Assembly (NCBI GenBank): GCA_044892525.1
Contig: CM097887.1
Span: 105,688,397-105,752,396, forward strand
From: Schmidtea polychroa
Lineage: Eukaryota
Direction: 5' to 3'
Length of the DNA stretch: 64,000 nucleotides
Shown piece after piece: positions 1,196 through 64,000 of the stretch. The position numbers and the translations under genes were made by a program. A model generated the notes under the pieces. That model saw only the letters and a list, made by a program, of their open reading frames with translations, was not told the DNA's origin and did not search any database. Position 1 is the first letter of the stretch, and each line of letters opens with the position of its first letter.

Positions 1196-4100
1196 TTGAT
1201 TATTTTTATTATTATTATAAAGTGATGATTTCTTGGTAGCAACTTTAATTAAATTTTAAACAATTAAATGATAATTTAAGCATTTTGCTACGAATAATAT
1301 ATTTATTACAAATGAAAATTTTTCATTTGTATTAAATATATTATTCGTAGCAAAAGACTTAAATTTTAATTGTTTAATATTATTATTATTATTTTTATTT
1401 CTATGTCAAATAAAAACAAACACAAATATGATATGAGACCGGGCGATGTGTATATACGTTTGAGACTTTTTCATTAAATCCTGGAACGTACGTAAAAAAT
1501 ACATCATTATTATCGACTTTATATCCTTGAATAGTAATTGATAAATACCAATTTCCTGGTTCCTTAAAGCTTATTTCTGCAAAAGCATCATAATATCTTG
1601 CATATCGATTATTGAAGAAATTTTGATCTCATTTTGATCTCATCTTGAAAACTTCATCAATAGTTTTAATATCTATCGTTGAGAGTGTCACTGATAGGTA
1701 TTGGAACTGAGTTTGGTGTTGTTTGATAGGAATTACGAATTTCATATTGATTTCTTCTTTTAAAAAAATGCATTTTGTAATTGTGAAACATCTGGCCAGG
1801 TTGCTCAAGCTGTTCAAAATCTTTAACCGCTCAACAATAACAGCAACATATTCATCTGAAAATGAAATATTAAAAATTAAAATAATAAATCATTTTTCAA
1901 ATATAGTTTTGTGTCCTTTCATTTGTTTGTTAATATACGATGACCTTTGTTTTTTAATTTTTGAGCATGTGATGGTACTGTTGTTGGTTTTGTATCTTTT
2001 TGAAACATACTCAAAACACCAGGTAAAACTTATCCTAATTCGGATAATTCATTTTTTTCAGAGATTGGCAATGTTTTCTGATCTCTTATTATCACATCTT
2101 TAGCAGTCATACCTAAAATTCCTATGCGTTTAAGAATCGGGATTGCAAATCTACGAATTGTTCACAACCAACCGGGCCTATATGTTTACTAATAAATTAT
2201 CGTAATTCACCACCAGCTTGGCTACCACTATATATTAAAATAATATCTGAACTAGCCATCTATTTTACGAAAATGTAATGTCAAATGAGTTTTTGAATAT
2301 TTTTCAAATTTGATTAATTTACCTGAATCGTCGCGTATATATATTTCTATATTGTTTATACATGAGGTTGAAACATATAAAAATATGGGATTTTCTATTT
2401 TGGAAAAAATGTAAGTGGAGAAACGGTGTGACAGGGAATAAAGAAATCAACCAGAAATTAAAATTAACAGACGATTGAGACAATCATATCAAGGAAGTTC
2501 GATTGAAATAGAAGTTTAGCGATCATTAATTTGAACTATTGCTAATTGTCTGTCGAACTAACTCCTGCGTTTCGAGTTTTGAGTATTGCAATTGTGTTAA
2601 ATTCGAAAAATAATAAACTATACAATTCTCTGAATATTTAAACAAATTGAAAATTTACTGAATTTAAGAATTACAATTTCATTAATTAATTTCCAATCTT
2701 AATTTAAAATAATTTGTTATTTCAATGAAGTTAATTTAATAATTAAAAATTTTTAAAAATGAAGTAATATATTCACGAATTTTCGGCACAGGCCTTTTCA
2801 ACTGATTCATAGTTAAATTCGTTTTATAAATACTTGAAAAGAAATCAGAGGTGAAAATTGAAAAGTTCTTAAAATAAATTTGTGTTTTTACTTGCTCGAT
2901 ATTTTTCGAAAATTGAGGTTCGGCCAATAGTATTATCAGCAGAAGTATTCCGACGGCCGCGAAAAGTTGAAGACCGCTGACTTAAATTATTAAAATAAAA
3001 TTTTATTCAAACAAAAAATTCAATTCTTCCTATTGACACGCTATTTGTAATAAAATGAATGATCTACTAAAAATTATTTTACCCTTTAAATCAGTGTTTT
3101 TAAGACCTAATTTTATTATTATTATTATTATTATAATTTTAACAAGATAATAAAAATTGGGGTATCGAGGATATATACCTTTGATGAGATCATAACAAAT
3201 AATGAACAAATGAAAAGCATATAAATCAACATATTTACGGACAAGGATATAGAACACAAATAGCAAATAAAAATATAAATGTAAAATAAATAATTTTAAA
3301 TTAATCTATTTGGGTGTAATGATGATGATAATTCATTAATTAATAAAAATTTGTTTATCATTAATGAAAAACATCTTTTATTTTTTTGACAAGTTAGTGA
3401 AAAGTAGAATAAAATTGTTTTGTGAATTTAATGAAGTTTCAATGCCATTCGGTCTTAGCGATTTGACATGAAGTAAATGGAGTCAAATTTACATGGTATT
3501 GCCACCGATAATCATAAACCTAACAAATGTTATTAGGCATTTAATTTTTATAATTTTGAGGTTTCTTATCTATTCAATAAAAATAAAAGAGAAATGAAAT
3601 ACTGAATATTTTTCAAAAAAATTTTATTATTTAAAGTATTTAAAACGGCATTTCAAAGTCAGTTTGAAGTTAAAGATGTAATATTTTTAGTGAATTCAAA
3701 ACAACACATTTAATAAAGATATGCTGATGAGAAAATAACGACATTTGGCTATTTCATCACAATATTTTTTGAGTGCTCAGCACTGTATAAATCAATAAAT
3801 TTCAACATTTTAATTTTGTATTGAAGTCAGTGCGGCCTTTTAAATTAACTTTTATTAATTACATTTTTAACTATCGAGAAAATTTGACTTCTTTTGGTTA
3901 TTTTTAAAATTCAAACATCAATAACTTTAATTTTAAATTAACCAATTACATTATTTNNNNNNNNNNNNNNNNNNNNNNNNNNNNNNNNNNNNNNNNNNNN
4001 NNNNNNNNNNNNNNNNNNNNNNNNNNNNNNNNNNNNNNNNNNNNNNNNNNNNNNNNNNNNNNNNNNNNNNNNNNNNNNNNNNNNNNNNNNNNNNNNNNNN

Positions 4101-4494
4101 NNNNNNNNNNNNNNNNNNNNNNNNNNNNNNNNNNNNNNNNNNNNNNNNNNNNNNNNNNNNNNNNNNNNNNNNNTGTTTTATCAAATAAAATTCTATAAAT
4201 TGTATATATTATAATATATGTTTTAAAAAATAATTTTAATTAAAAAGAAATTTTAAATTTACACATATTTTTGGAATTAATTTTTTAAATTATTAAAATT
4301 AATTTGATAATTCTTTTTTAATTGAAATGAAATAACAGTTTTTTTTTAATTTTGACCTAAGTGAACCTGATATTGATCACATAAGAGTGATGCACAATTC
4401 ATCATTGGTTGTAAAATTGTAAAAAAAATATGTGAGTAGGCTGTATATAAATGCATATTATTTTAAGTAGTTTTTAGAATTTAATCGGATTAAA

Positions 4495-5409
4495 ATGTCG
4501 GAACTAGAGGATTTTAATTACGAAAGTTTACATTCACATAATGGGTCAGATAAAGAAAACTTTTTAATTTTTATAAATTAATTTTTTAGTCTGCGTAAAG
4601 CACACAATGTCCCTCTATTGAGGTATAATAAACAGTTGAGTTTGGAAGCTCAACGGTATGCAGAATTAATAGCAGCAAGAGATTTAATGGAGCACAGTAA
4701 GAAAGAAGATCGAAACAATGCTGGTGAAAATCTAGCTATGTGCATGAGACCGTTTGTAGACTATAAGTATTCCGGTTGAATTTTAATTTTTGATTTATTA
4801 TATTAAATATTTGTTTCATTTAGGATTAGGAGCAAGTGTTAGCTGGTATTCAGAAATTAAGGATTATGATTTTACCAAAGAAGCTCAGCCACCAAACAAT
4901 CCGGCGACAGGTAAAACTGAAAGTTACTAATTAAATTTTTAACATAAAATTTAGGACATTTTACTCAATTGATTTGGAAAGATTCTAAAGAAGCCGGTTT
5001 TGGTCGAGCGAAAAATCCTGAATCAAATTGTTGGTACATTGTTGGAAGATATCAACCGGCTGGAAACTTTGTTGGCAAATATTTAGAAAATGTACCCTCA
5101 TTGCCTAGAGGACGTTAGATATTTTGAATTCAACAATATAATTCTATCTATTAAATCACAGAGAAATGGGATGAAGTGCAAATTGTTAAGGAATATCTCG
5201 AAGAACTGCGAACGATGGAATACACTCAAGTAAGAAAACACATTCTGGATGATTGGAAAGCTAACTGGATGTCGGGAACAAGAGGTGGTGTTTTCTACTG
5301 TGATGTTGTTGAAACATTTACCACACCAACCGGGTCGACATATACAGGAGAAAATCATTTTACCGAAGATCCTAGACAATTAGTTTGTTTAAATTATATG
5401 TTTTTGTAA
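4495..5409 (+). CDS. CAP/SCP/TAPS domain protein (GLIPR2/GAPR-1-like), first CAP domain plus an ~75-aa extension exon
   Basis: Exons 4495-4544, 4590-4774, 4824-4910, 4955-5113 and 5162-5382/5409 with 44-49 nt GT-AG introns in matching phase. Protein MSELEDFNYESLHSHNGLRKAHNV...MEHS...GENLA...WYSEIKDYDF...GHFTQLIWKDSKEAGFG...VGRYQPAGNFVG has the full His-Glu-Glu-His tetrad and no signal peptide. Confidence 0.9.
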
Positions 5410-6462
5410 CATGAAAATAAATGATGATTAAATTAATCAGATATAAATTTTTTAAGAATCCCTAAATTTAATAAACATTTTTTTATTATCATTTAGAAAT
5501 AGTTTATGTTAGTAAGAAACTATTTTTAAAAGAATTGAGCTTTATCTTTTAGTTATTCTGTTTTTTCGTGTTTTAATTTGTATGTTTATAAGTATCATCA
5601 TCTTTTATATCTCTGTCTACAGTTTCTTTCTGTTGGAGGTACTTTTGTATACATCACATATAGCATTCCTGAGAAAACTTTGAAAGCTTTCCATCCGGCA
5701 ACTTTTATTTACGAGTTTTATTTGCCTAATGTGTGTTTACGCCTATTTACACCGGGGAAGATTAAAATAATATTATTGAGGTTATCTACGAATTAATCAA
5801 TTAATTAATTAAAATAGTTGAGGTAATAAATGGAACATAAATTGGAATATGATCAATGATTACGCAATTGTAAAATTTAAAGAAAATGTTGGAAGAAAGT
5901 TAGGAAACAAAAAAAATCACTTATAAATAAGGTGAAATTTATGAAATATTAAATTAGTGTAAACCAACAAATTAGAATATTGAAAAAATTATTATTATTT
6001 ATTTTATTATATCTTTTATATAATAAAAAGATAAATACTATATATTTCATGAGACTTGATAACTGTAAGTCTTTGAAGTTCCAAGAGCCGCATAAAGAAT
6101 TAAATGATTGACAGACTGTTGCCGTAATTAACAATAAATTATATAAATATTTTTTACATAATTTCTTAAGCAAAGGTAGAGTAAGTAATAATAATAGTAA
6201 TAAAATAATAAAACANNNNNNNNNNNNNNNNNNNNNNNNNNNNNNNNNNNNNNNNNNNNNNNNNNNNNNNNNNNNNNNNNNNNNNNNNNNNNNNNNNNNN
6301 NNNNNNNNNNNNNNNNNNNNNNNNNNNNNNNNNNNNNNNNNNNNNNNNNNNNNNNNNNNNNNNNNNNNAATTTACAAGAAAAATTGCAGAAAATTAATAC
6401 AATAGCTATTGTACAATTTGATTTAATCAATAAATATTAAAATTAAAATTATTTTCTTTTAG

Positions 6463-9400
6463 CCGAGACCAATTTTTGAAGGTTCATTGGATGACAGCGT
6501 ATATGATATTGGTGATGATCAACTGAATGGATATACCAGTGGTTAGTTTGGTTGCTATTGTTTGATCTATTGAATATAGTGAATAAAATTTTTATGAATA
6601 TAATAATAATATTATAAAGTAAAGGTGTAAAATTTTTTTGTCGGATGTCTCACTTGAATAAAATAAACAGTACAAGCTTTGTGATACCCAGTGCAAATCC
6701 CAATAGTAAACTAGTTTCGAGCTTTTGGCTCTCATCAGTACTATGCAGGAGACGCGAAGATTTTTTTCGCGTCAGGTAAGTATACAATATTGCTGATTCA
6801 ACTCTATTGCATACTTTCCCCGGTACACTGGAAATCACATCGCTTGCAAATTAGCTTGGTCACAGAAAAAATCTGTAAACTTGTAAACATGGCGTATGAA
6901 AAATCATAATCACCTCTGCGGATTAAAAATTTTTTTAATTTGCAAGCGATGTGAACTATCGAACTTTTGCCCAGGGTCATAGTTTTATAACATCCTGGAT
7001 CGAAACTAGTCTACTATTGGAATTTGCACTGGGTATCACAAATCTTGTACTGTTTTGTTTTATAATAATAATATTATTATTGTATTTATTAAAAAGAGCT
7101 TGAAGACTATAAATCAGTAAATATATCGATGTTTTTGATATTCAAGAATTTTCGGCACTGCCTTTTTAAAGTGAATTTGATCAAATTAGATTTTTTTTTT
7201 CAAATTTCACTACTGATTTCTTNNNNNNNNNNNNNNNNNNNNNNNNNNNNNNNNNNNNNNNNNNNNNNNNNNNNNNNNNNNNNNNNNNNNNNNNNNNNNN
7301 NNNNNNNNNNNNNNNNNNNNNNNNNNNNNNNNNNNNNNNNNNNNNNNNNNNNNNNNNNNNNNNNNNNNNNNAATTTTAATTTATAATCATTTTGTACTTT
7401 TAATATAAAACTCGTTAAATTTATTCATTTGAATATTAAAAATAAATTGAAAAATTAACTCATTTAATTCCCAGGCCCTTCATAATGCCATATGGGATAT
7501 GAAATACGATATTAAAATGAGATAAAATTCAATTTGGTAGGTTGAAATATTGAATAGAATATTTTTATTATCTTTTTAAGCGATTTATCAATTTAATGAT
7601 CAAATGGAATATAGACTCCTAATTAAAATATAATAAAAATTATATTAGGCAAAAGTTTAAAGATTTAATGACAATTTTTTAATCAGCTATGCGACCTTTT
7701 AACCCTTTATATGCTGCTGGCGCTTATAAACATGTCCATTTCTATTTTAACCCCTTTGTTGCTGAACATCTTACATTCATTTTTATTTTACTAGGCGTCT
7801 ACTTCCTTTGCTTATTCATAGGGCCTTGGCGAAGTATTTTTGGTAAGAATATCTACAACCCTAATATGTTGCTATTTAAATTATATGTAAGCAAGTATAA
7901 GTATTGACGAGGGCCTATTAGCGACAAAGAAGGGAAAGACTTATCTCAATTTAATACGTCTTTGTAAAATGTTCCTAATAAAGTGAAATATTGAGTTTAA
8001 GTATTCCCATTGTATTTGTTTCATTTTGATGAGACATTTAGAAGATTTGTTGACTAAAATACATTTCTGTGGAATATTAACAATATTTATGAAAAGGGTT
8101 TACTTATTAACCAAACTAGGAGCATGAAGCAGATTCATTATTTTCTAAACTAATTTTTAGAATAGTTTGTGTAAAAGCACAATTGATTTTCGGTTGGGAA
8201 ATTGGAGTTCTCGAACTATTTTAGATATCCTATAGTGGGATTGATGTTATCTTAAACTGCAAACTGTTGAGTGTAGTTTAAAATAATACAGTTCCGTAAA
8301 AATTAATTTTGGATCCAATTTCTAATAATTTCGATTGAATATCCGGAAAACTAAAAACCAATGAAATCAAAGAACCAATAAGAAACTAACCGTGTATGTT
8401 AACAATAAGCAAATGTATTTTTGTATTTATTCCTTTATTGTATAAAAGGTATAATAAAGAAATAATAAACAATCAAGTTTATTAAACTTAAATTACAAAG
8501 TTCTCTTAATATTTTTTCAATATCGCTTTTTATTATCATTATTTTATACTTTTGGTTGGACATTTATGGAATTATGTTTTTGACTGACTTCTACGAAAAA
8601 TCGAGAAATGTAATATAGATCTTATCTTGTTTTTTGCCTGGGGCTTATTTACTTTTTCTTCTGCTTCATATTAGTATGAACACATTTTCTACTTTCCTGT
8701 AACTCTGAGTTTTAATAATGCTCTCCTAAAATTTAATTTAATTATATCAAAATAGCTTCACATTAAATATTAATAAGAGTAACATTTTATTAAGATAAAT
8801 TGATGTTTTTAAACATTTATATCAGAATATTATATTTTTTAAGCAAATTAATTTTTTTAATTTTTAAATTATCTTAATTTCTTAATCATATATCTAATTT
8901 AGACAAAGATTCAGATAAAGGAGAAAATGAAGAGATTAAAAGTTTCATTGAAGCAGTTGTATCTCAGCACAATTATTATCGAAGGAATCATAATGTTGCA
9001 ACTTTGAATTTGGACAAGGTAAATTATTTTTATTTAATTAATTTAAATTAATTAAATTTAATTAGCATTCGTAGTTATTAATCAAATTAAATTTTGGGAT
9101 AGCTTTTACTAAATGTTTATTCTAAACCTAACATAACTAGCTTATCAATTGTATCATCTTATAAAAATATACGTAATTCCAAAATAAAATTTGAAATATT
9201 GTCATCGAATAATACATTTAGAAAAGTTATATTACTTTCGATCAATGTTGAAAATGAAAGATTTTATTTATTATTTATTTTTAATATAACACTTTGATTT
9301 ATGATTAATTACTCGTATGTTTATTTTTATTGTAACTAATTGCACAAAATTAATAANNNNNNNNNNNNNNNNNNNNNNNNNNNNNNNNNNNNNNNNNNNN

Positions 9401-10805
9401 NNNNNNNNNNNNNNNNNNNNNNNNNNNNNNNNNNNNNNNNNNNNNNNNNNNNNNNNNNNNNNNNNNNNNNNNNNNNNNNNNNNNNNNNNNNNNNNNNNNN
9501 NNNNNNNNNNNNNNNNNNNNNNNNNNNNNNNNNNNNNNNNNNNNNNNNNNNNNNNNNNNNNNNNNNNNNNNNNNNNNNNNNNNNNNNNNNNNNNNNNNNN
9601 NNNNNNNNNNNNNNNNNNNNNNNNNNNNNNNNNNNNNNNNNNNNNNNNNNNNNNNNNNNNNNNNNNNNNNNNNNNNNNNGATATTTTGAACATTTAGCAG
9701 CTAAATACCTATGCTCAGGACTGGGCGGATGAATTGGCGATAGAAAATAAGATGTCATTCAGTAATTACATATTTGAAAATCAACACATAGGTGAAAATA
9801 TTACTACGAAAAAAGGAAATGTTACTGAAGATTCAGGTGAAAATAATGTTGCTTTGATTTTACTCTCATTATTGTTAATTATGATACAAACTTTGGACAG
9901 CACAATGCAATTAAAATATCTTTGAAACGTCAGTGAGTTTTTTTCAAAACATTTTAGAATTTATCATGATAGATAGAGACAATGTAAAGTTATTGTTTTT
10001 CTAGTTGCCGTGATAATTACCTGGTAATAAAAACCAAAATGGTTTACATTTCACGTTGTTTGTGGAGAATTTTATCTTAAAATTCAAGATATTATATTGT
10101 TCTATACTATTCTATTGTTGGTAAATATAGGCCAGTCACTATGAACACAAAATTGGTATTTGCATTCTAAATTCTTTCAGCAATTTGAAAAAATAGTTCC
10201 ATGTAAACATTTTAGAAAGCTTTTAAAAATGTTTTTAAAAAATAAGAGTTTTTTATAGGAAGTTATTGCTATTGCAAATTTTTTAGTCTTTCCACATTAT
10301 TATATAAGTACAATGAAATTTTACCATCATTCGAAATATTTTCAGAGTTGCATATAGTCGAAAGATTGAACGAATATAAAGACCAATCTGTATTTTAGTT
10401 GTGAATAGCAATCAAACTTTTAATATTGGGAGACAAATAGCCATATGGTTTCCCAAACCTCAAACATGTTTAAGGGAAATATATATATTGTCGGACACTA
10501 TTAATAGACACTTTATCTTTCAGCCAAAGTTCTTGTTGACAGCTGGTATAGCGAAGGCAAAAATTACAATTATAGAAAAGAACCAGACAATTTTAAGAAT
10601 GTTGGTAAGTAAATGTTAATATATAAAAAATAGTAAAATATGTAACATATTTTTAGGACATTTTACGCAAATGTTATGGAAAAGGTCCAAGAAAATAGGA
10701 GTCGGAGTGGGACGAAATTCAAACGGAAAATCTTTTATTGTTTGTTTTTATAGTCCCGCTGGAAATAAAAAGAATGAATTTATTCAAAATGTTTTAAAAT
10801 CATGA
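6463..10805 (+). CDS. Second CAP/SCP domain (probably the 3' half of the same gene as 4495-5382)
   Basis: Exons 6463-6541, 8903-9018, 9698-9836, 10524-10604 and 10657-10805, phases compatible: ...QHNYYRRNHNV...YAQDWADELA...GENIT...VDSWYSEGKNYNY...GHFTQMLWKRSKKIGVG...VCFYSPAGN...QNVLKS*. Confidence 0.85.
6703..6744 (-). ncRNA. Minimal type I hammerhead ribozyme
   Basis: Minus strand reads AUAGUA-CUGAUGA-GAGC(CAAAA)GCUC-GAAA-C-UA-G-U-U-UACUAU: 6-bp stem I, intact CUGAUGA and GAAA cores, 4-bp stem II, palindromic stem III (ACUAGU), cleavage triplet GUU. Confidence 0.8.
6979..7017 (+). ncRNA. Degenerate hammerhead ribozyme copy
   Basis: AUAGU-UUUAUAA-CAUC(CUG)GAUC-GAAAC-UA-GUC-UACUAU: 3' half canonical with GUC, but the CUGAUGA core has decayed. 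Confidence 0.55.
7703..7965 (+). mobile_element. piggyBac-like remnant
   Basis: TTAA|CCCTTT left end at 7699-7708; downstream FGKNIYNP.. and SIDEGLLATKKGK resemble the piggyBac Y-x-P...SIDE...KG motif; no matching right end found. Confidence 0.4.
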
Positions 10806-11399: not shown

Positions 11400-11830
11400 A
11401 TAGCCCCCACGCCGTATGCAATCAAGTTGTAACAAGTTTCTGTTAAATAACGCTATTGGAGCAACCCGGTAGCAATCGACTGGTGGATCGATATTTTTCC
11501 TAAATTCCTCAGTACGATTGAGCGTCTTTCAGGATCTTGAAGTCGAGTATGTCACTGATGAATGGGATATTCAGATAGAAATATTTCTGATAATTTTGTG
11601 TTATTTCCCTAGATCTCTTTGAGATAGAATTCATTCTTTCAATGTCTTTACCTTGATATCCGTTTTTGTGTAGGATTTCATTGAAGCTTAATTGTTGTTT
11701 ACAGTTCTCGTTTTCTTCAGTACATCGATTGGCTATCCTTTGTTTCTCGTCTTTTATGACGTGTACTTTCTGTAAGTATAGAAGCGCTGATCTTTGGTGC
11801 ATACATATTTCTTTGCGAGCTGGTTTTTAT
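11400..11830 (-). mobile_element. PLE fragment (RT thumb/linker region)
   Basis: ORF 11509..11802 contains EILHKNGYQ...YLNIPFISDILDFKI, typical of PLE L-x-x-NGYP and Y-x-x-IPY/F segments, followed by a Cys-containing linker with stops. Confidence 0.65.
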
Positions 11831-14076
11831 TTTAATTTTATTCTTCATATAGAGAGAGATTTAGATACATGTTATATATGATGTATAATTAAAATATTAA
11901 AAAAATTATAATTTTAAACTAATTTACTAAAATAGTTCATAATAATTAATTTCTTATTAAAACAAATCACTATTCGAATTCTCAAAGGGAAAATAAAAGA
12001 TTTTCAATTATTAAAAACTGCGATTAATTTAATTATCAAATCTTATTTTCTTTATAAATTATTTTTAATAATGCACTTTTCCAATATAGCTCTACAAATT
12101 TTTATTTCTTAATTTAATAATCCCAAAAGGCATTTATTCAATTATCCGCAGAAAGCAGATTAAAACAATTCAGAAAATCCCAGTGATGCCAATCATTGAA
12201 AATTATTTTAATTAACAAATCTGATTTTCAGAGATTTTCGTTTTATTGATAAAATTTTTACTGTTTTGTAAATCATTTTCTTTTTATTTTCTGATGGATT
12301 TCTAATAAAAAAATTTATTTGATATTGAGATTATTCAAATCAGATTTATATTTGTGACTTTTATGACAATTTTAATAGCTTTTGGAAATTGAAATACTGG
12401 GGTAAATAAAATTCTAATTAAAATATTGAATTTATTTTGTTTAAACTGGTTGTATTTTTTTATAAATTTATTTACAATATTTTTTAGTTATGAATATATT
12501 TATATTTTTAATTTCTTTAATCTTCATTTGTTTTCAAATCAAAAGAAATCAGTTAAAGATCAAAATTTTTATATATAAAAATATTTTAGACAACCTTTGT
12601 CAAATTAAAAAATAAATAAATAAACGGAAAAAAATTATGAACTTTACTGATAAAAAGTAATTTTTATTAACAAATCTTAGATAAGCAAATTTTCGATGTG
12701 TGATCAAAATGAGACAAAATGTTTGGTGCATTTTTTAAAATGATTTGTTGAAATGTGGATTTTGTGAAAACTTTTAATGTATTTTGTTTTAATAAAGTCT
12801 TGAAAGTTATTTTAAATGTTTAACTTGTTTTTTAAATAAATTTTGTTTAAATATTGGTGCGTTACAGGTTATCTACATTTACACTTTTGTGCTGTTTCCA
12901 GTGTAATCCAGAATGCAAGCATGTTGTACCGCTCGATACCCGTTGAGTGACCAACGTTGATAATGTATCGAATGGGTGAGTGCAGCTAAAATTGAGTATA
13001 CCATTGTATGCTATTATTGGCAAGTACTCAAGGGGGCTCGCGGACTGTCGATTGAAGGCTTGTGTTCGACTTTCATGTAGATCCTTTTTCTCTGTGATCA
13101 CTTGTACCTAAGGTTCGGCTCCCTCCATGATATTACCATTTAATCAGTGGAAAGTCAGCATATCCCTGCTTTTTCAACTAAAACAACTATCTAAATACTC
13201 GAACAGATTTATTGAAATAAAACACGACATCATGCATTGTTTGTCTTTGATTGTGATCGGTTTTCTTGACCCGTGCTCGTTCAGCTTTTCCAGGACGTTT
13301 TTTCTTTTGGGTCGTGGGTCGTTCCTTGATTTTAACGAATTTTAGTCCTAAATTTTTCTATATATAATATTTGATATAACTAATGACAGAAGTTTGGTTT
13401 AGCATGTGCAATTTCTGAAATGATTTTCAATCCTTTGATAAGAATCATGATTGGGAATTTTAAATGGATAACTTATTTTCATGTTATAAATCTTTTAGTT
13501 ATTTAGACAAACTCGACCTTTCAAAGGATGGATTGCTTAAAACGAAAATTTACTTCTTGAAATAGTTATAATCGCTAAAATAAAACAAAACAAGTTTCTT
13601 CGATTTCTAATGAAATAGTTGTGTAATAAATACCATTCTTCCTTCTTTTTCATAGTATTTTTCATGAGAATTTCACATAAATCGGTGGAAATTTCGGTTA
13701 TTTCTGTGTTAATACTATTCTTTAGCTCGTAGTTATCGATGTATTTTCCTCATTATTAGATGCTTGATTTCTTGAATTAATTACATCCATATTTCAAAAA
13801 CAAAACAAAACTATATTTTTAAAAACAACTCATAATAATGATCTCATAATTATATAAAATCAAAATTCAAGCCTTAAAAGTTACTTAAATTAAAAAAAAC
13901 TTACTTGAAAACCATTTAAAAAATTGAATGAATGAAGTAAATAACTTCCCACTCTCATAAATGGTGATTCATCTACTGATGCACACACCAACGTGTATTA
14001 TAGAAACTTTTATATTTCGGATTTAGGTGTAGCGTTTTTCCCCCGCAAATTTACTTTAATTATCTAGACTCTAGAG

Positions 14077-15526: not shown

Positions 15527-17057
15527 CACCCAACTCTTTTTTTACACGGTCTTTTTTTACACGATTTTGAAATAACACGGTCCACAAAAAAGGAACAAAT
15601 CTTCTTTTTTTGCACGAAATATTCAGTTTAACACTATTTCCAAAAAAATTTTATGTTTTAATTTTGTTTTTATTGTTATTTTGACAAATATTTTTTTAGA
15701 AAATTTTACTTATATAAGAAAGTTTTAATAAACTGGTAATGTTATTTTTTTTAAATTTTAAATTTTTTACTTATTATTTTATTTTACTAAAGGAAATTTT
15801 AATAAACTGGTATTTTCCTGCAAAAATTATTATTTTTAAGAAGTTTTACTTACACAAGGAAATGTTAATAAACTGACAATGTTATTTTTTTTAGATTTAA
15901 AAATTTTTATTAAGTGTTTTTATTTTAATTTTTATTATAGCCGATTAATAAGATGCCTAAACGAACGAAAAATAATCGGAAGCGACAAGCGATTTCTTTG
16001 GAAACTAAAATAAAAATCTTAGACAGTCTTGAGAGAGGCGTAGGTCCCACATCTGTTGGCAAAGATTTTAGTTTAAGTGAAGTGACTATCAGAATTATAA
16101 AAAAAAGTGAGGATTTCATTCGACGATCAGTAATTTCTGGACCGAACATCAGTTCCAAAGCATCGTCATATAGCCGAAACATTATCTCGGAGAAAATGGA
16201 AAAAAGTTTAGTGGTTTGGATAGAGGATTTCCTGCAGAAAAAAATACCTATAGATGGAAAAATTATAAAGGAAAAGGCCCTTAGAATATACAAACGACTT
16301 CGGGAATTGGAGCCACCAACAAGTGTCAATGCAATAAAGACAATGACATTTAATGCAAGTGAAGGATGACTGACAGGATTCCTAAAAAGGCAAGCATTTC
16401 ATAATGTAAAAATAAAAGGAGAAGTAGCATCAGCAGATGAAAATGTTGCAAAGAGTTTTCCAGAAAAACTCATAAAAATAATTGAACACGGTGGCTATAC
16501 GCCAGACCAGGTAAAATTGCCCTCCAGGACCTACATTGCTAAATCAGAAAAATCTGATGGCGGTTTCAAAGCCGCTAAGGATCGAGTAACGTTTTTATTG
16601 TGTAGTAACGCATCTGGAGTTAAGATTTTAAAGCCACTGTTAATCAACAGGTCATTAATGCCACGAGCTTTGAAATGCAAGAATATTAAACAGCTGCAGT
16701 CCATTGGAAAGAAAGGCATGGATGACAGGAGAATTTTTTACAAAATGGTTCCAAGAATGCTTCGTTCCTGAAGTTCAAAAATATATGGAACAAAAGGGTC
16801 TTCAATTCAAAGTACTCTTGCACCCAGCCATTCTGTACTACACCATCCAAAACTTATATAATATGGTTTCAAGATTTACTATTTTTTTTGCACGGTTTTT
16901 TAGAACAACTAATGGTTCTTTTTTCTATTTTACACGGTTTTCTATAATTGTAGAACACATCCTCAATTTTACTATGGTTAACGTGTCTTTTTTTACACGA
17001 TTTTTTTATGCGATTTTCGTTCGAACGTATCTACCGAGTCAAAAAAAGAGTTGGGTG
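15527..17057 (+). mobile_element. Tigger/pogo DNA transposon with pseudogenised transposase
   Basis: TIR CACCCAACTCTTTTTTT at both ends with TA TSDs. 15953-16800 encodes HTH_psq (KRQAISLETKIKIL), CENP-B HTH, FNASEG*L (TGG>TGA), a deleted DETG motif, PSRTYIAKSEK..GFKAAKDRVT and AWMT; 3' part truncated. Confidence 0.92.
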
Positions 17058-17072
17058 TATTTAAGAACTTGA

Positions 17073-18578: not shown

Positions 18579-20867
18579 CCACCCAAACGTAATATTGAAA
18601 TGGATAAAATACTTTCTCGAACGCTTGCTTCAAGCATGAAAGATGCAGAAGTAAAACCTTTTTTTAGATATTAAATAATCTATTCCTTTAAAGAAGTTAT
18701 TTTCTATCCAAGATGAAAACGAAATAAAAAGTTATATCAATCAATTACAATTCAGTGATGAAATTTTGCGTTTCGCTGGAATTTTATATAAAATAATAAC
18801 ATCTGATTCTAAGGTATCGATACCCGCCACAAAATGGTTAGAAATATTTATAAAAATAAAAACAATTGCAATTTTAAGTTCACCGGTTCTTCAAGTAATA
18901 AAGTAAATTTATTGATAAATGATTATTTGCCAATACAGAACATTTTGCGCCAGTTTGTCATTTACAATATGATGTGGCGGAAACCGTCCAAATATATGAA
19001 TGAAATATTAATCCAAATGAAACACGATGAAGCAATAATGAAATATAAAAATGATGAGGAATCTGACGACGAAAAAGAAAAGAAAATGTTGCTAGACGGT
19101 AAATGATTATTCTAAATTAATGTTTTCCTCTATCATAACAGAATATATTGCTTTTAATTGAGAAAAAAGTAGTATGAATGTGATAAATCTGTATATTTCT
19201 AGTCACTATGCCTGTAAATCATTTATTTAAGATCGATACCAATTATGGGAACACTATTCATATACCGCATTATGCAAAATAGTATGTAGCTACTCTATGA
19301 AATTGAACGATATCTTTCTTTTAATTTCTTACTTCAAATTTTGACCAAATGTTATATTAACCACTTATTGGTCCCCTAATTACCACTTTATATTGGTCCC
19401 CTAATTACACTTTATATTGGTCCCTATTTGTCACTTTATATTGGCCCCATTTGTCACTTTATATTGGCCCCATTTGTCACTTTATATTGGCCCCATTTGT
19501 CACTTTATATTGGCTCCATTTATATCAGTCCTCATTTGTCACTTTATATCAGTCCTCATTTGTCACTTTATATTGGCCCCATTTATCACTTTATATTGGC
19601 CCCATTTATCACTTTATATTGGCCCCATTTATCACTATATCAGTCCTCATTTGTCACTTTATATTGGCCCCATTTGTCACTTTATATTGTCCCCATTTAT
19701 CACTTTATATTGTCCCCATTTATCACTTTATATTGGCCCCATTTATCACTATATTGGCCCCATTTGTCACTTTATATTGGCCCCATTTATCACTTTATAT
19801 TGGCCCCATTTGTCACTTTATATTGGCCCCATTTGTCACTTTATATTGGCCACATTTATCACTTTATATTGGCCCCATTTATCACTATATCAGTCCTCAT
19901 TTGTCACTTTATATTGGCCCCATTTGTCACTTTATATTGTCCCCATTTATCACTTTATATTGTCCCCATTTATCACTTTATATTGGCCCCATTTATCACT
20001 ATATTGGCCCCATTTGTCACTTTATATTGGCCCCATTTATCACTTTATATTGGCCCCATTTATCACTTTATATTGGCCCCATTTGTCACTTTATATTGGC
20101 CCCATTTGTCACTTTATATTGGCCACATTTGTCACTTTATATTGTCCCCATTTATCACTTTATATTGTCCCCATTTATCACTTTATATTGGCCCCATTTA
20201 TCACTATATCAGTCCTCATTTGTCACTTTATATTGGCCCCATTTGTCACTTTATATTGTCCCCATTTATCACTTTATATTGTCCCCATTTATCACTTTAT
20301 ATTGGCCCCATTTATCACTATATTGGCCCCATTTGTCACTTTATATTGGCCCCATTTATCACTTTATATTGGCCCCATTTGTCACTTTATATTGGCCCCA
20401 TTTGTCACTTTATATTGGCCCCATTTGTCACTTTATATTGGCCACATTTATCACTTTATATTGGCTCCATTTGTCACTTTATACTGGCTCCATTTGTCAC
20501 TTTATATTGGCCACATTTATCACTTTATATTGGCCACATTTATCACTTTTTGTTGCTTTAGATAAAGTAGCAACTGTTATTGCTATTATAATTGAAATTA
20601 CATTTATTTATCTCAGAATCCGAAGATGAAGACTTAAATGAATCGATGGAAGATTCAAATGAAGAGGCATCAAATAGTGACGAAGACGAAGAAGACCTTG
20701 ATAATGTAGACAATGAAAAATCATTCTTTTTGGAAAATATGGAATCAGAGGTGTGACGATGATGTTATTCTTAGATTGAATTTTATTTGATTTTGTATTA
20801 GGATGATGAAGACGATGAAGGCGAAGAGTTGCCTATGGATAGTGATGAGGATGATGATGATGAATAA
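18579..20867 (+). CDS. Utp12/Dip2-domain protein with acidic tail (WDR43/UTP5-like), 3' exons
   Basis: Exons 18579-18650, 18694-18894, 18939-19098, 20617-20750 and 20802-20867 in phase: PPKRNIEMDKILSRTLASSMKDAEKLFSIQDENEIKSYINQL...KWLEIFI...ILSSPVLQNIL... then a D/E-rich tail ending MDSDEDDDDE*. Family call is by motif recall; exon structure is more certain than identity. Confidence 0.6.
19361..20548. repeat. Intronic 23-bp minisatellite (consensus TTT(G/A)TCACTTTATATTGGCCCCA), about 50 monomers
   Basis: Directly visible; includes 21- and 22-bp variant monomers; lies in intron 19099-20616. Confidence 0.97.
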
Positions 20868-40686: not shown

Positions 40687-41179
40687 CAGTGGTGGCATTC
40701 AGCCGGTTCGCACGAACCGTTTCTATTCTACCGCTTATTAACAAAAAAAAATTGGAAATATTTACAATAATTTTAAACACATTATAATATATCGTCGGTT
40801 TAAAAGCAGAAATCACTAAGTCAAAAATCAACTTAGGAATTTCTGATTGTATTATAATAGCACGATTGACATAGTGCAATAAATGTCCGCCTAAAAACCT
40901 CAACAATATCAATTTACGACTTATAAGATTTTGCCCAAATAAAGTTGGCATTATAATGATTTAATTTAGTACAAAAAATCAAAATCTTGGAAAATGTACT
41001 TAGTGAATTTTGCTTGTAAACCAACGATATATATGTATATATTTGAAAAAGGCAGTGCCTAAAATTCGTGAGTATCAACAAACATCGATATATTACTGAT
41101 TTATAGTCTTCAAGCTCTCTTTTTATTTCAATGGATAAAATAATCAGTGGTGAAATTGGAAGAAATAAAAGTTATTACA

Positions 41180-43612: not shown

Positions 43613-45409
43613 TATATATATAATGGGGTAATGGGGATATTTTCTACTCAATATTATGAATTCCACCGTGAAATGTGGGGTATCCTTTAACTTTTTTCTT
43701 TATATAGTTCTAAAATCTATCAAAAAAAATACGAGTGTGAATCTCTTGAGGAGAAGTGTAGTGAAATCCCGACTAGAAATAAAATGAAGAAATTTCGCTA
43801 CTCTAATCAGTCAATCATTAAACATATTTGAAATCGCATCATTACAATGTTTATTACTTGGTTATGACAACATAAAATGTTAACTTTTCTATAGTTGACT
43901 TCGTGGTAACAGAATGTTCCATCCAGTGTTGCATAACTGTGTTTGATATTTATCATTGGTATGTAGCTTATTGTGCTGTTACATCCGTGGTCTTCTTTGT
44001 TATTAACTACTCTGTGGCAGTGAATACTTGCTCTGATGAACTCGTATTCATTGTTATTCTCCAATTGCTCAATAATTTTATGAAGGATGACTGACTGAAA
44101 TTCAGAGATGGCAAAAAATCTGTGAGTAATATATTGTAACAACAATTTTGTTCCCAACTGTTTGCGAACCAGAAAAATCTGCTTCGTTACATGCTATACT
44201 GTTGGAGTTTGTAGAAATTGCAACATGTTCTGTTTTCATTTGTGACATCATCTAAAAGAGTCAATGTTACTTTTCCTTCAGATAGATACGAATGATGACG
44301 CAGGAACTTTTCAAAGCAACACTGAAAATATTTTCATTTTCCTCTGCATATTTGTCAATTTCTGAGAAGCAGAACTCCTTGTCCCCGTTTATTTTAATCA
44401 TTTGTAATGTCTTTGTGGCTAGAATATCGAAGAAATCTTCCAGCTCTTCCTAACACCTATATTCATTTTGCCGTAATTAGGGTCTGCAATAATCTTGGAA
44501 ATCGTCAATCTGATTTTTTAGCCCATTTTTTGATCTATTTTCAAAATCTTTCCAACTTCATCATCCATTATCCATTTGTCATAGTACAAACCATGCTACT
44601 GTCGATATTATTTTAAACATTGAAAGTCGTCTTTTTGAATAGTAAATTTTCACTTTTCATTTTTTGCACTTTTTAAATTAAAAATTTTTGAGATTATAAT
44701 ACTGTATAAATTTTGTATAATTTGTCAAGGAATTCGTTATTTTTAGATTTTAAAAATTATTCATTTGTATTCTTTTTTAGTTTATATTGTAATCCCAAAA
44801 TCATGTGAATATTTTAGTATGATAACTGGATTCCTTTTTCAGTAATTTATACAAGATTCCGGGATTACTAACTTTAGATGGAATACCAGAGAATGTTTGA
44901 CTTTGTTTTTCCATATTTTTCTCTAATTTACCCTATTCCCTGAATACGTTTGTTATGTTATGTATTATAATTGTTATATTAGAATTGTTATAGTATGAAG
45001 AGGAATTTATAGTGCCAAGTAGAGTCACCTTTAAAATCTGTATTGAGTCTGATTAAATTAATATTTAATTATAGGATAAGGTTATAACAAAATGATAAAA
45101 TTTTTACAACTTTTATTAAACTAAAAAATAATAACACGCACCAGACTGATTCCATAAAATCATTCTTCCTGCATTCTTTGCATATTTTTCGATCGTTAGT
45201 TTTTTCAATTTTCTTTATTATAAGAACTTTTTTTCCAAATTTCACCACTGATTTCTTTTCCATTGACATTGTATTTAGTTTGTAGATTTTAAGTGAGTTG
45301 CCCTTTTACACATTTTCCTATTCTCAACTATATGACTCACGCTTTTCAATCCTCAATTTCTAAGGAAATTCATTTCAATTCGTTGATTTTATAACAAAGC
45401 ATACCATTG

Positions 45410-46590
45410 ATCTTTCTGACTATATTATGTCTTGATGAAACTAGTTTATTTACACATGTTCCATTAAATGAAACTATAGATCTTTGCTCAGTATTGTGGA
45501 ATGATAATATGTTGAATAATCAGATTTTAGATGAAGTTGCATTTCGTGAATTGTTGATTTTTGCCACTTCTAATGGTGCATTTCTTTTTAATGATAATTT
45601 GTTTCAACAAGTTGTTGGTGTAATAACGGGATCACTATTAGCTCCAACTCTTACATCAATTTTTCTTTAAAAAAATTTGAGAAAAAATTTCAGATTATCC
45701 TCTTGTAGGTCTTATGATATATTAACGTTACGTCGATGATATTCTTTTAGTATTTTATAGTTCTGATGATGTCCTTTCTTTTTCAAATCATATGAACGGG
45801 ATTCATTCAAATATAAAGCTTACAATGAAAGAAGAAGCTAATTCTTTTCTACCAATTTTAGATTTGTGAGTGGAAAAAAGAGTTAATGGTTTTTAAACAT
45901 AAATGTACACAAAGCCAACGGATACAGGCATATACGCTACCTCTAAAAGCTTTTGTGACTTTAAATATAATAAAAATATGATTAAGGGTTTGATTTTTAG
46001 ATATACATACGCTCGTTTCTCTTTTGAATAAAAATGATAATTCAAAGGGTTTTGTATAAAGATCGACTAAGGAAACCATTAATCATCTTTTGATTGCACC
46101 TGACGAAAATAATGAAAATTGCACTTCATTTAATGACGATAAACCTTTAAAATCTCATGTTTTAGTTATTCTATATTCTGAAGGCTTTAAAAGTGTTAAG
46201 TTTTCTGTAATGAAATCATTAGTCAATTCTAATTTATTTAAAATAGTATCAAAATCTTTAAAATCATTAAATATATCTAAAAATAAATTTCAAGCCCAAT
46301 AGGTTTAGTGTTTGTTCTAATGTATAAGTTTTCATGTAAAAGGATCAATAACATTGGAGAGACTTACCGTTATCTCCACAAACGGGTTCAGGAACATAGA
46401 CTATTGAAAGACGAGAGTCATATATATTGAACATAGGAAAATTTGTAAAGAGGCAAATAACTTAAAATCTTAAAGTTTTATATAAAAACTTTAACAATAT
46501 ACTGGAAAGAATTTTATGGGAGGCACTGTCAATTTATTCACAATCTCCCACAATTATCATTCAACCAGCAACAAATTTATTGAGATTATT
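45410..46590 (+). mobile_element. Degenerate PLE: RT core through GIY-YIG endonuclease
   Basis: LDETSLFTHVPLNETI, GVITGSLLAPTL, RYVDDIL, NGIHSNIKLTMKEE..LPILD, YTKPTDTG, and later YKFSC...IGETYRYLHKRVQEH; multiple stops and frameshifts. Confidence 0.9.
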
Positions 46591-62900: not shown

Positions 62901-64000
62901 ATGAAAATGTAATCAAACCGGAAATTGCTTCTCAAATGACGGCAATCAGTGTGACTGACGATGCAAAACTCATTGAAGAATTGCAAACGAGAATCGAAGA
63001 TCTTTTGAAAGAAATTCAACAACTTCGCAATGAGAAATTGGATTCTAAATTCACTACAACAGATCAAACAAGAATTCTTGAAACTTCTACGTCTTCAGAA
63101 ATGACTTCGATTGTAGTTCACGAAACAGCAACAGATGGGTCTGACGGCATTTTGAATGAGATTTTCCAGGAATTAGAGGAAAAGAATCGAGAAATTTCAA
63201 TGCTTCAAGACCACAAAAGCTCTCTGATACATGAAATTGATCAAATGAAACGAGAACTTATTAACAAAGACGCAGATGTAGAATTGAAATTGAAAGAAAA
63301 GAACAGTTTCATTATTGAATTGGAAAGGCAGAAAACGGAGTTGGAACAAAATGTCGAATATTTGACAAAGGAAATGAGCGAATGCGTGATTTACCGAAAG
63401 GATGGAGACGCGAATGAGAAACTTGTTGAGTTGTATAAAGAACTAGAGATTAAGAACCACGATTTGATGTTGTTGAGAAATGAAAAAGTTACACTCTTAG
63501 AGGATATCGATAATATGCGTAGGGAAATGCATCAGAAATACGAAAGGTTCACTTTGACTTTGAAAGAGAAAGAAACAATTATCAGTGAATTGCATTCAAT
63601 CAAAGTATCTCTCGAATCAAACATTGATCAAATGGCTCGAAGAGTGAGAGAAACAACAGAAATATCTGGTCTTGAGAGTGAGCTTGATGTCAAATTAGTG
63701 GAGTTATACCAAGAAATCGACACAAAGAATCTGGATATTGTCACTCTTAAAAATGAGAAACTGGCGCTGTTGACAAATATTGAAAGATTGCAAACGGAAT
63801 TGCGTGAAAGTAAAGAAAAGTACGTAGATTCATTCGAACAGATGACAAGGACAGTCGTTCATAAATCCTTCGCTACCCAAGACGATGTTGAAGTTGATGA
63901 AAATGTAATCAAACCGGAAATTGCTTCTCAAATGACGGCAATCAGTGTGACTGACGATGCAAAACTCATTGAAGAATTGCAAACGAGAATCGAAGATCTT
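47969..64000 (+). CDS. Giant repetitive coiled-coil protein coding region, 3'-incomplete: small exon 47969-48082 plus giant exon 48125 to beyond 64000
   Basis: Exon 47969-48082 (38 codons, phase 0), 42-nt GT-AG intron, then an open frame from ATG 48125 to 64000 (15876 nt = 5292 codons, last codons ..RIEDL) with no stop or frameshift. E/K/L-rich heptads. Missing from the ORF track, presumably because it has no stop in the window. Confidence 0.88.
48584..64000 (+). repeat. Coding tandem array, 996-bp (332-aa) unit, about 15.5 copies
   Basis: Antisense ORFs recur exactly every 996 bp (48890, 49886 ... 62834). Units differ only by a few point substitutions and no indels. Confidence 0.98.

Follow-up and report, generated by a model that had tools for sequence, protein, structure and literature searches.

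A hammerhead-bearing repeat with a short inverted partner in a Schmidtea polychroa intron: a probable Penelope-type insertion

Described relatives and the layout of the insertion

Endonuclease-bearing Penelope-like elements (PLEs) and the non-LTR retrozymes of metazoans are the closest described counterparts of the locus reported here. As far as the available text of the sources goes, PLE insertions have an inverted 5'-truncated copy at their 5' end, together with a tail of 30-40 bp on one side (PMC8557442), and the rotifer examples have 8-10-bp duplications (PMC3846280). According to the accessible part of PMC11167929, the Anolis PLE protein acts on AT-rich DNA, where it cuts and extends both strands, and starts reverse transcription inside the RNA; this start lies 111-118 nt into the ORF and, with the hammerhead cut 26 bp from the ORF start, falls ~85-92 nt past the cut. 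The formation of the inverted ends of PLEs is still debated in the accessible portions of PMC3846280 and PMC11167929. PLE mobilisation of metazoan retrozymes has been proposed from co-occurrence and sequence relatedness (PMC7229834 and bioRxiv 10.64898/2026.07.22.740005, both in their available text), and the action of such hammerhead motifs as dimers has been described (PMC4209133; available part of PMC7229834). In Schistosoma mansoni, dual min-HHRs put hammerhead sequence on each of the two strands at a spacing of 100-700 bp, in an arrangement ascribed to truncated PLEs (PMC4209133). Every ingredient of the present locus is already published, including these opposite-strand pairs.

The window, i.e. 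the whole stretch of DNA that was analysed, comprises 64,000 nt of the planarian S. polychroa (contig CM097887.1 of assembly GCA_044892525.1, positions 105,688,397 to 105,752,396 of the forward strand). It contains a 445-bp insertion at 6616-7060, lying between 17-nt direct repeats. We read this insertion, with a probability of about three in four, as one copy of a hammerhead-bearing repeat whose 3' part is present a second time as a short inverted copy, likely the work of PLE enzymes in an AT-rich intron and predicted to be inactive. Between two candidate source RNAs, a non-coding tandem unit of the retrozyme type is somewhat more likely, the terminal part of an autonomous PLE on its own somewhat less. 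For comparison with public data, 4 of 23 listed runs (X1, X7, X13 and X19, all consisting of assembled contigs, with X19 from a second organism, here organism B) were aligned to 6369-7222 at 80% likeness. The features of the locus are, in window positions:

6542-8902, plus strand: host intron (GT..AG) of a CAP/SCP-domain gene, holding the insertion; spliced contigs in X7 and X19
6599-6615, plus strand: left 17-nt direct repeat, AT only, likely target-site duplication; exact match to 7061-7077
6616-6929, minus strand: main copy of an abundant self-pairing hammerhead repeat family, which extends past both ends
6616-6659, minus strand: 44-nt extension at one end only (PLE-type tail); the right arm ends at the equivalent of 6660
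6744-6739 and 6708-6703, minus strand: helix I (AUAGUA/UACUAU), 6 bp
6738-6732, minus strand: hammerhead core CUGAUGA
6731-6719, minus strand: helix II (GAGC/GCUC), 4 bp, with loop CAAAA
6718-6715, minus strand: hammerhead GAAA
6711-6709, minus strand: cleavage triplet GUU, predicted cut after 6709
6930-6957, plus strand: 5' junction, made of T6, an inverted 19-nt copy of 6835-6853 (at 6936-6954) and 3 further nt; family contigs depart at 6929
6958-6998, no strand assigned: 41 nt best read as filler from another repeated sequence; exact X13 match, own hairpin
7000-7060, plus strand: inverted 5'-truncated second copy, 56/61 nt identical to 6720-6660
7061-7077, plus strand: right 17-nt direct repeat; exact match to 6599-6615

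With canonical endonuclease-bearing PLE insertions, as portrayed in the available text of PMC8557442, PMC3846280 and PMC11167929, the insertion shares the head-to-head layout, the inverted truncated 3' copy, the extension at one end, the AT-rich target, the flanking direct repeat and the mosaic 5' junction. The inverted 5'-truncated copy is here represented by 7000-7060, with like joints in other contigs, and the one-sided tail by 44 nt, slightly above the published 30-40 bp. A hammerhead ~90 nt upstream of the outer end is also common to both, the distance being 93 nt in the present case and ~85-92 nt in Anolis. Unlike those PLE insertions, the one studied here is without coding sequence and unlinked to the PLE remnants elsewhere in the window, and its likely duplication measures 17 nt as opposed to the 8-10 bp of rotifers. 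Neither an ORF with RT and GIY-YIG domains nor, in a comparison with 107 proteins, any similarity to PLE proteins was found within the insertion.

The likeness to metazoan non-LTR retrozymes, as these appear in the available text of PMC7229834 and bioRxiv 10.64898/2026.07.22.740005, extends to the canonical type I hammerhead with its short palindromic helix III, a GC content below 50%, a likely duplication of more than 4 bp and the presence of PLEs in the same genome. The repeat family is, moreover, non-coding, multi-copy, very abundant and highly self-paired, as retrozymes are. Retrozymes form tandem 150-450-bp units, whereas the locus at hand holds a truncated monomer accompanied by its inverted partner, and a tandem order of the family is suggested by three contigs. 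The repeat unit of the family is probably 375-450 nt long, judging from the 314 nt present here and two loose ends whose 30-nt stretches do not overlap, one of the ends being 73 nt long. The word 'inverted' occurs 0 times in the available text of PMC7229834 and once, in a reference title, in that of bioRxiv 10.64898/2026.07.22.740005.

The original prediction had set the inverted layout of the element against the direct repeats of retrozymes. That contrast dissolves, with three contigs suggesting head-to-tail units and inverted ends being known for PLE insertions (PMC8557442 and PMC3846280 in their accessible parts; PMC4209133). Its notion of a non-autonomous, PLE-derived unit survives insofar as the insertion is PLE-related, non-coding and hammerhead-bearing with inverted ends; the two back-to-back hammerheads it included fall away, the right arm having no 5' half. 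On this last count the locus also differs from the dual min-HHRs of S. mansoni (PMC4209133), as it has one complete motif only, with canonical 6/4-bp helices.

Boundaries, hammerhead motif and right arm

The family contigs of X7 and X13 depart from the window sequence exactly at 6616. Among 3000 position pairs drawn at random there was no direct repeat of at least 16 nt, and among 3000 AT-matched pairs there were 3. Together, the flanking 17-nt repeat and the family edge fix the insertion at 6616-7060, and the bounds of 6655-7060 that had been proposed are hence too narrow on the left. The 17-nt repeat, read from one allele, is likely a target-site duplication; no empty site was seen among the X1 contigs, which leave 6485-6571 in the unique flank uncovered. 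Left of 6659 the summed contig depth, itself a rough measure, drops ~5-fold in X1 and ~4-fold in X7, and the two outward ends lie 93 nt and 49 nt past the ribozyme cut, 44 nt apart. A second, very abundant repeat (7079-7222), unrelated to the insertion, starts 2 nt past the right-hand direct repeat.

The insertion sits in an intron of a host gene on the plus strand, antisense to which the hammerhead is oriented, as had been claimed. The exon at 6463-6541 is joined to an exon ending at 5382 and to one starting at 8903 (one contig each, X7 and X19), the intron borders in the window sequence are GT and AG, and the upstream host exons match P0001, a CAP-domain protein with PF00188. In the host CAP/SCP gene as a whole (4585-9018, plus strand), the first CAP domain (P0001, PF00188) is connected in RNA contigs, by way of exon 6463-6541, to a second CAP-like stretch at 8903, and further CAP exons occur at 10511-10793.

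The minus strand of the window sequence carries a complete type I hammerhead with a palindromic helix III at 6744-6703, bearing out the original prediction of such a motif with a GUU site. A hammerhead descriptor finds it as its sole match in 1-48000, and none of 300 dinucleotide shuffles gives one. Only the left copy combines the CUGANGA and GAAA core, an NUH site and helices I-III in order. Its 6-bp helix I, 4-bp helix II and palindromic helix III are those of the canonical metazoan type I form of PMC4209133 and not the helix sizes of the min-HHR in the same paper, and the earlier label 'minimal' is accordingly dropped. An Rfam search, which had been proposed as a check, does return a match of the HH9 model to 6688-6756 on the minus strand, at 21.5 bits (E 0.047) as opposed to a gathering score of 52; nowhere within the window is an Rfam hammerhead gathering score reached. 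We infer that forms with a short helix III suit the HH9 model poorly. In the predicted folds, helix III cannot close in the monomer, which attains -6.7 kcal/mol with helices I and II only, compared to -18.8 kcal/mol for a double-hammerhead dimer. In the source family, the ribozyme would cleave as a dimer via its palindromic helix III.

The claimed fold-back of the element is likewise borne out, 6660-6720 and 7000-7060 forming an inverted repeat identical at 56 of 61 nt, with 5 differing sites. In the right arm, homology sets in at 7000, two bases ahead of GAAA, and comprises the 3' half only: the last 2 nt of helix II, GAAA, helix III, a GUC site at 7009-7011, the 3' strand of helix I and 43 nt downstream. 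The hammerhead 5' half (helix I strand, CUGANGA and helix II) was looked for in the right arm and is absent. When a candidate 5' half of 41 nt was aligned to the real one, 989 of 2000 shuffles matched or beat it, and 133 of 2000 still reached the alignment score of its most favourable 25 nt, picked by hand. The stretch at 6958-6998 recurs with 0 differences in an X13 contig of 678 nt, where the sequence to either side does not resemble the locus; it is also covered in X1, X7 and X19, at a summed depth far below that of the hammerhead family, and is best read as filler derived from another repeat. In view of the shuffle scores and this foreign context, we reject a degenerate 5' half in that arm, and the decayed plus-strand hammerhead that had been placed at 6979-7017 is not supported. 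The impression of a second hammerhead is traceable to a chance CATAGT at 6978-6983, which resembles the 5' strand of helix I at roughly the right distance. The filler is itself a repeated hairpin-forming sequence, present in all four runs (X1, X7, X13 and X19).

Both arms had also been said to start with a shared 19-mer. An exact pair exists, 6835-6853 recurring inverted at 6936-6954, but the arm starts are not homologous: the first copy precedes the real hammerhead by ~90 nt, the second precedes the GAAA half by 45 nt, and the intervening sequences are unrelated. The right arm carries GUC, the family majority, and the complete left copy carries GUU. The suggestion that the sense copy had been disabled by selection against self-cleavage of host RNA is unsupported, the right arm giving no sign of a 5' half. 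Being a single locus, the insertion cannot show an orientation bias or selection on orientation.

Pairing of the inverted arms is predicted with a probability of 0.96 in the minus-strand RNA and 0.91 in the plus-strand RNA, i.e. the host pre-mRNA. The resulting 61-bp hairpin would bury the 3' half of the ribozyme in the former and the GUC site in the latter. GUU sites are cut less efficiently than GUC sites; from the arm-arm pairing and the GUU site, the copy is predicted to be inert.

The repeat family in public contigs

The main copy at 6616-6929 belongs to a very abundant, strongly self-pairing repeat family. In X1, 30,816 contigs aligned on 6369-7222, including those on the separate repeat at 7079-7222, and the summed depth, whose figures are not copy numbers, ranged from 1.2 to 3.5 million over 6659-6919 and fell to 0.62 million on one side (6630-6658) and 0.085 million on the other (6920-6948). 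The whole of 6616-6929 is matched by a single X13 contig, which has 10 differences and extends on both sides, and loose contig ends occur at 6616 and 6929 in X7 and X13. The stretch folds at -96.4 kcal/mol (z -7.1), with 0 of 200 shuffles as low, and no stop-free frame runs across it. No further family copies were found inside the window. Pattern scans of JGI metagenomes and of IMG/VR gave 1 and 13 loci, respectively, all of them short matches lacking an upstream hammerhead core, which we read as chance. A search by title and abstract start found no publication on the family; it may be listed in Repbase or in the supplementary material of PMC4209133 and PMC7229834.

At 6709, the letter that makes the triplet GUC accounts for 93% of the depth in X1, more than 99% in X7 and the one contig in X13 (1/1). 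In organism B (X19) it makes up ~11% of the summed depth, with no other letter listed, such that GUU apparently prevails in that organism; GUU at the hammerhead site may not be simply decay. The depth in X19 is 3700-7550 over 6688-6745 and less than 500 in the remaining intronic bins, with loop II changes common; the ribozyme is the best-kept part of the repeat family in organism B. The catalytic core is without common variants, which is weak when taken alone, as the 27 variant rows over 314 nt predict ~1 in the 13 core positions. Set against the fold, 14 of these 27 fall at unpaired sites, 7 keep a pair and 6 break one; such tests of variants against structure are weak (p ~0.08 for transitions, ~0.05 for the excess of unpaired sites).

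Joints between distant parts of the locus were taken from the contigs of one run, with 1-2 contigs per row and sides of 24-51 nt (15 rows listed, 81 further). Among the 15 rows listed, at least three (4 contigs) lead from 6698, 6812 or 6850 to 6999-7005, at least two (3 contigs) switch strand inside the repeat unit, and at least two (3 contigs) return from 6869 or 6918 to 6612, as would be expected of head-to-tail units. Inverted junctions are thus found repeatedly, at points that vary, alongside head-to-tail joints; the three returning contigs suggest that the family has head-to-tail units elsewhere. In the unrelated repeat at 7079-7222, contig joints return from ~7220 to 7079 and suggest a tandem unit near 150 nt; a partial copy of it lies at 41043-41122.

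Spliced host contigs and hammerhead-family contigs are both present in X7 and X19, though contigs can show neither level nor strand. As the unrelated neighbouring repeat is equally deep in X7, the family contigs give no evidence on expression.

Origin of the insertion and its neighbours

For the PLE-type insertion that we favour, the following course may be envisaged. The PLE endonuclease would nick the two strands ~17 nt apart. One end would prime reverse transcription 93 nt downstream of the ribozyme cut and copy 314 nt, while the other, priming 44 nt nearer the ribozyme, would copy 61 nt and halt at the base of helix II. Short templated pieces, namely the 19-mer and the 41-mer, would then link both products head to head. 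Inverted arms starting near the base of helix II are seen at the present locus and in 4 contigs, at 6999-7005. We tentatively entertain, as possible if somewhat doubtful, the fuller version in which the source is a true non-coding tandem retrozyme, its dispersed copies bear PLE-specific scars and its inverted arms show a preference for starting at the base of helix II. If true, a retrozyme family with PLE scars would be direct genomic evidence of PLE enzymes moving retrozymes in trans, and the arm starts would mark a structure-dependent stop of the reverse transcriptase, offering a handle on the formation of PLE inverted ends. The single locus is likely a dead by-product of known architecture, and the useful part is the family: an abundant non-coding family with countable scars would permit a genome-wide test of both retrozyme mobilisation and the origin of inverted ends.

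The same mechanism might have acted on the terminal pLTR or 3' end of an autonomous PLE, leaving an ordinary 5'-truncated stump and no retrozyme family, which we consider less likely. Truncation at the 5' end is usual in PLE copies, the Schistosoma opposite-strand pairs 100-700 bp apart have been ascribed to just such truncated elements (PMC4209133), and partial tandems of PLEs likewise produce head-to-tail joints. The ATG within CUGAUGA, furthermore, opens 40 codons to 6616, in the geometry of the Anolis PLE as given in the available text of PMC11167929. However, a stop-free run of 40 codons arises by chance with p ~0.065, and against nine PLE N-termini 1589 of 2000 shuffles score as well as the 40-aa peptide, on which ground a PLE N-terminus starting inside the hammerhead core was rejected. 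Also at odds with a stump are the lack of PLE protein similarity in the comparison with 107 proteins, the retrozyme-like combination of the fold z of -7.1 with canonical helix sizes, and the loose end past 6929, which, judged by eye, is complementary to the unit and not coding-like. Considerably less probable is a fixed palindromic element with two hammerheads, the sense copy of which decayed under selection sparing the host pre-mRNA. While the intact motif is indeed antisense to the host and CATAGT could pass for a helix I 5' strand at about the right distance, the supposed 5' half does not rise above shuffles and lies inside the 41-nt exact match to another context. The 61-nt arms, too, differ at 5 sites only, and the core would need several changes plus a different helix II. 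Coverage of the family drops away at 6929, and the contigs that lead into the inverted arm elsewhere do so from various points. The shuffle result, the foreign 41-nt context and the collapse in coverage largely refute the two-hammerhead palindrome.

Target duplications of MITE superfamilies are short and of fixed length, making the likely 17-nt duplication a poor fit for a MITE-like DNA transposon or a foldback generated by repair, in which 61-nt terminal inverted repeats would include part of a hammerhead by chance. We hold this to be very improbable, notwithstanding the long inverted repeat near both ends, the direct flanking repeat, the AT-rich target and a Tc5/CENP-B transposase remnant in the window: the left inverted repeat is not terminal, having a 44-nt overhang, and the right arm is missing from most of the family coverage. 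Family copies, in other words, do not have inverted repeats in common at their very ends. Most improbable of all is a role of the sense half-site as a target, with family RNA supplying the catalytic half in trans and cutting the host pre-mRNA at the GUC ending at 7011. The minus-strand 6744-6710 and plus-strand 7004-7017 are predicted to fold as a complete trans hammerhead at -11.5 kcal/mol, and the arm does bear the family-majority GUC; yet the site in the pre-mRNA is predicted to be paired with the left arm (probability 0.91), which is transcribed first, and correctly spliced host contigs occur.

Also in favour of a PLE-type origin of the insertion, decayed PLE coding remnants related to RT and GIY-YIG proteins lie at 1-657, 11476-11868 and 45395-46427, and both domains are present in 5 of 6 scanned relatives of these remnants. 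From three remnants in the window it follows that PLE enzymes exist or existed in the genome. The insertion has no significant DNA or protein similarity to the PLE remnants of the window, and the hammerhead descriptor has no match near those at 11476-11868 and 45395-46427. For the PLE fragment at 11512-11826, relatives were found by phmmer only, with Pfam, a word-index search and Atlas all blank.

The remnant at 1-657 has its RT-upstream part on the minus strand (360 to 7, 57% to P0005) and its GIY-YIG end on the plus strand (388-657), with a head-to-head junction of its own, i.e. the same inverted layout in a coding element. The relatives of the remnants at 11476-11868 (minus strand) and 45395-46427 (plus strand) are ~850-aa RT and GIY-YIG proteins. 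Elsewhere in the window, a coding-looking, coiled-coil-like array of near-identical ~1-kb repeats (period by eye) runs on the plus strand from ~48500 to the window end at 64000. A broken transposase of the Tc5/CENP-B type (pogo/Tigger-like) occupies 15941-17072 on the plus strand, and a 23-nt minisatellite of ~51 copies lies at 19384-20549.
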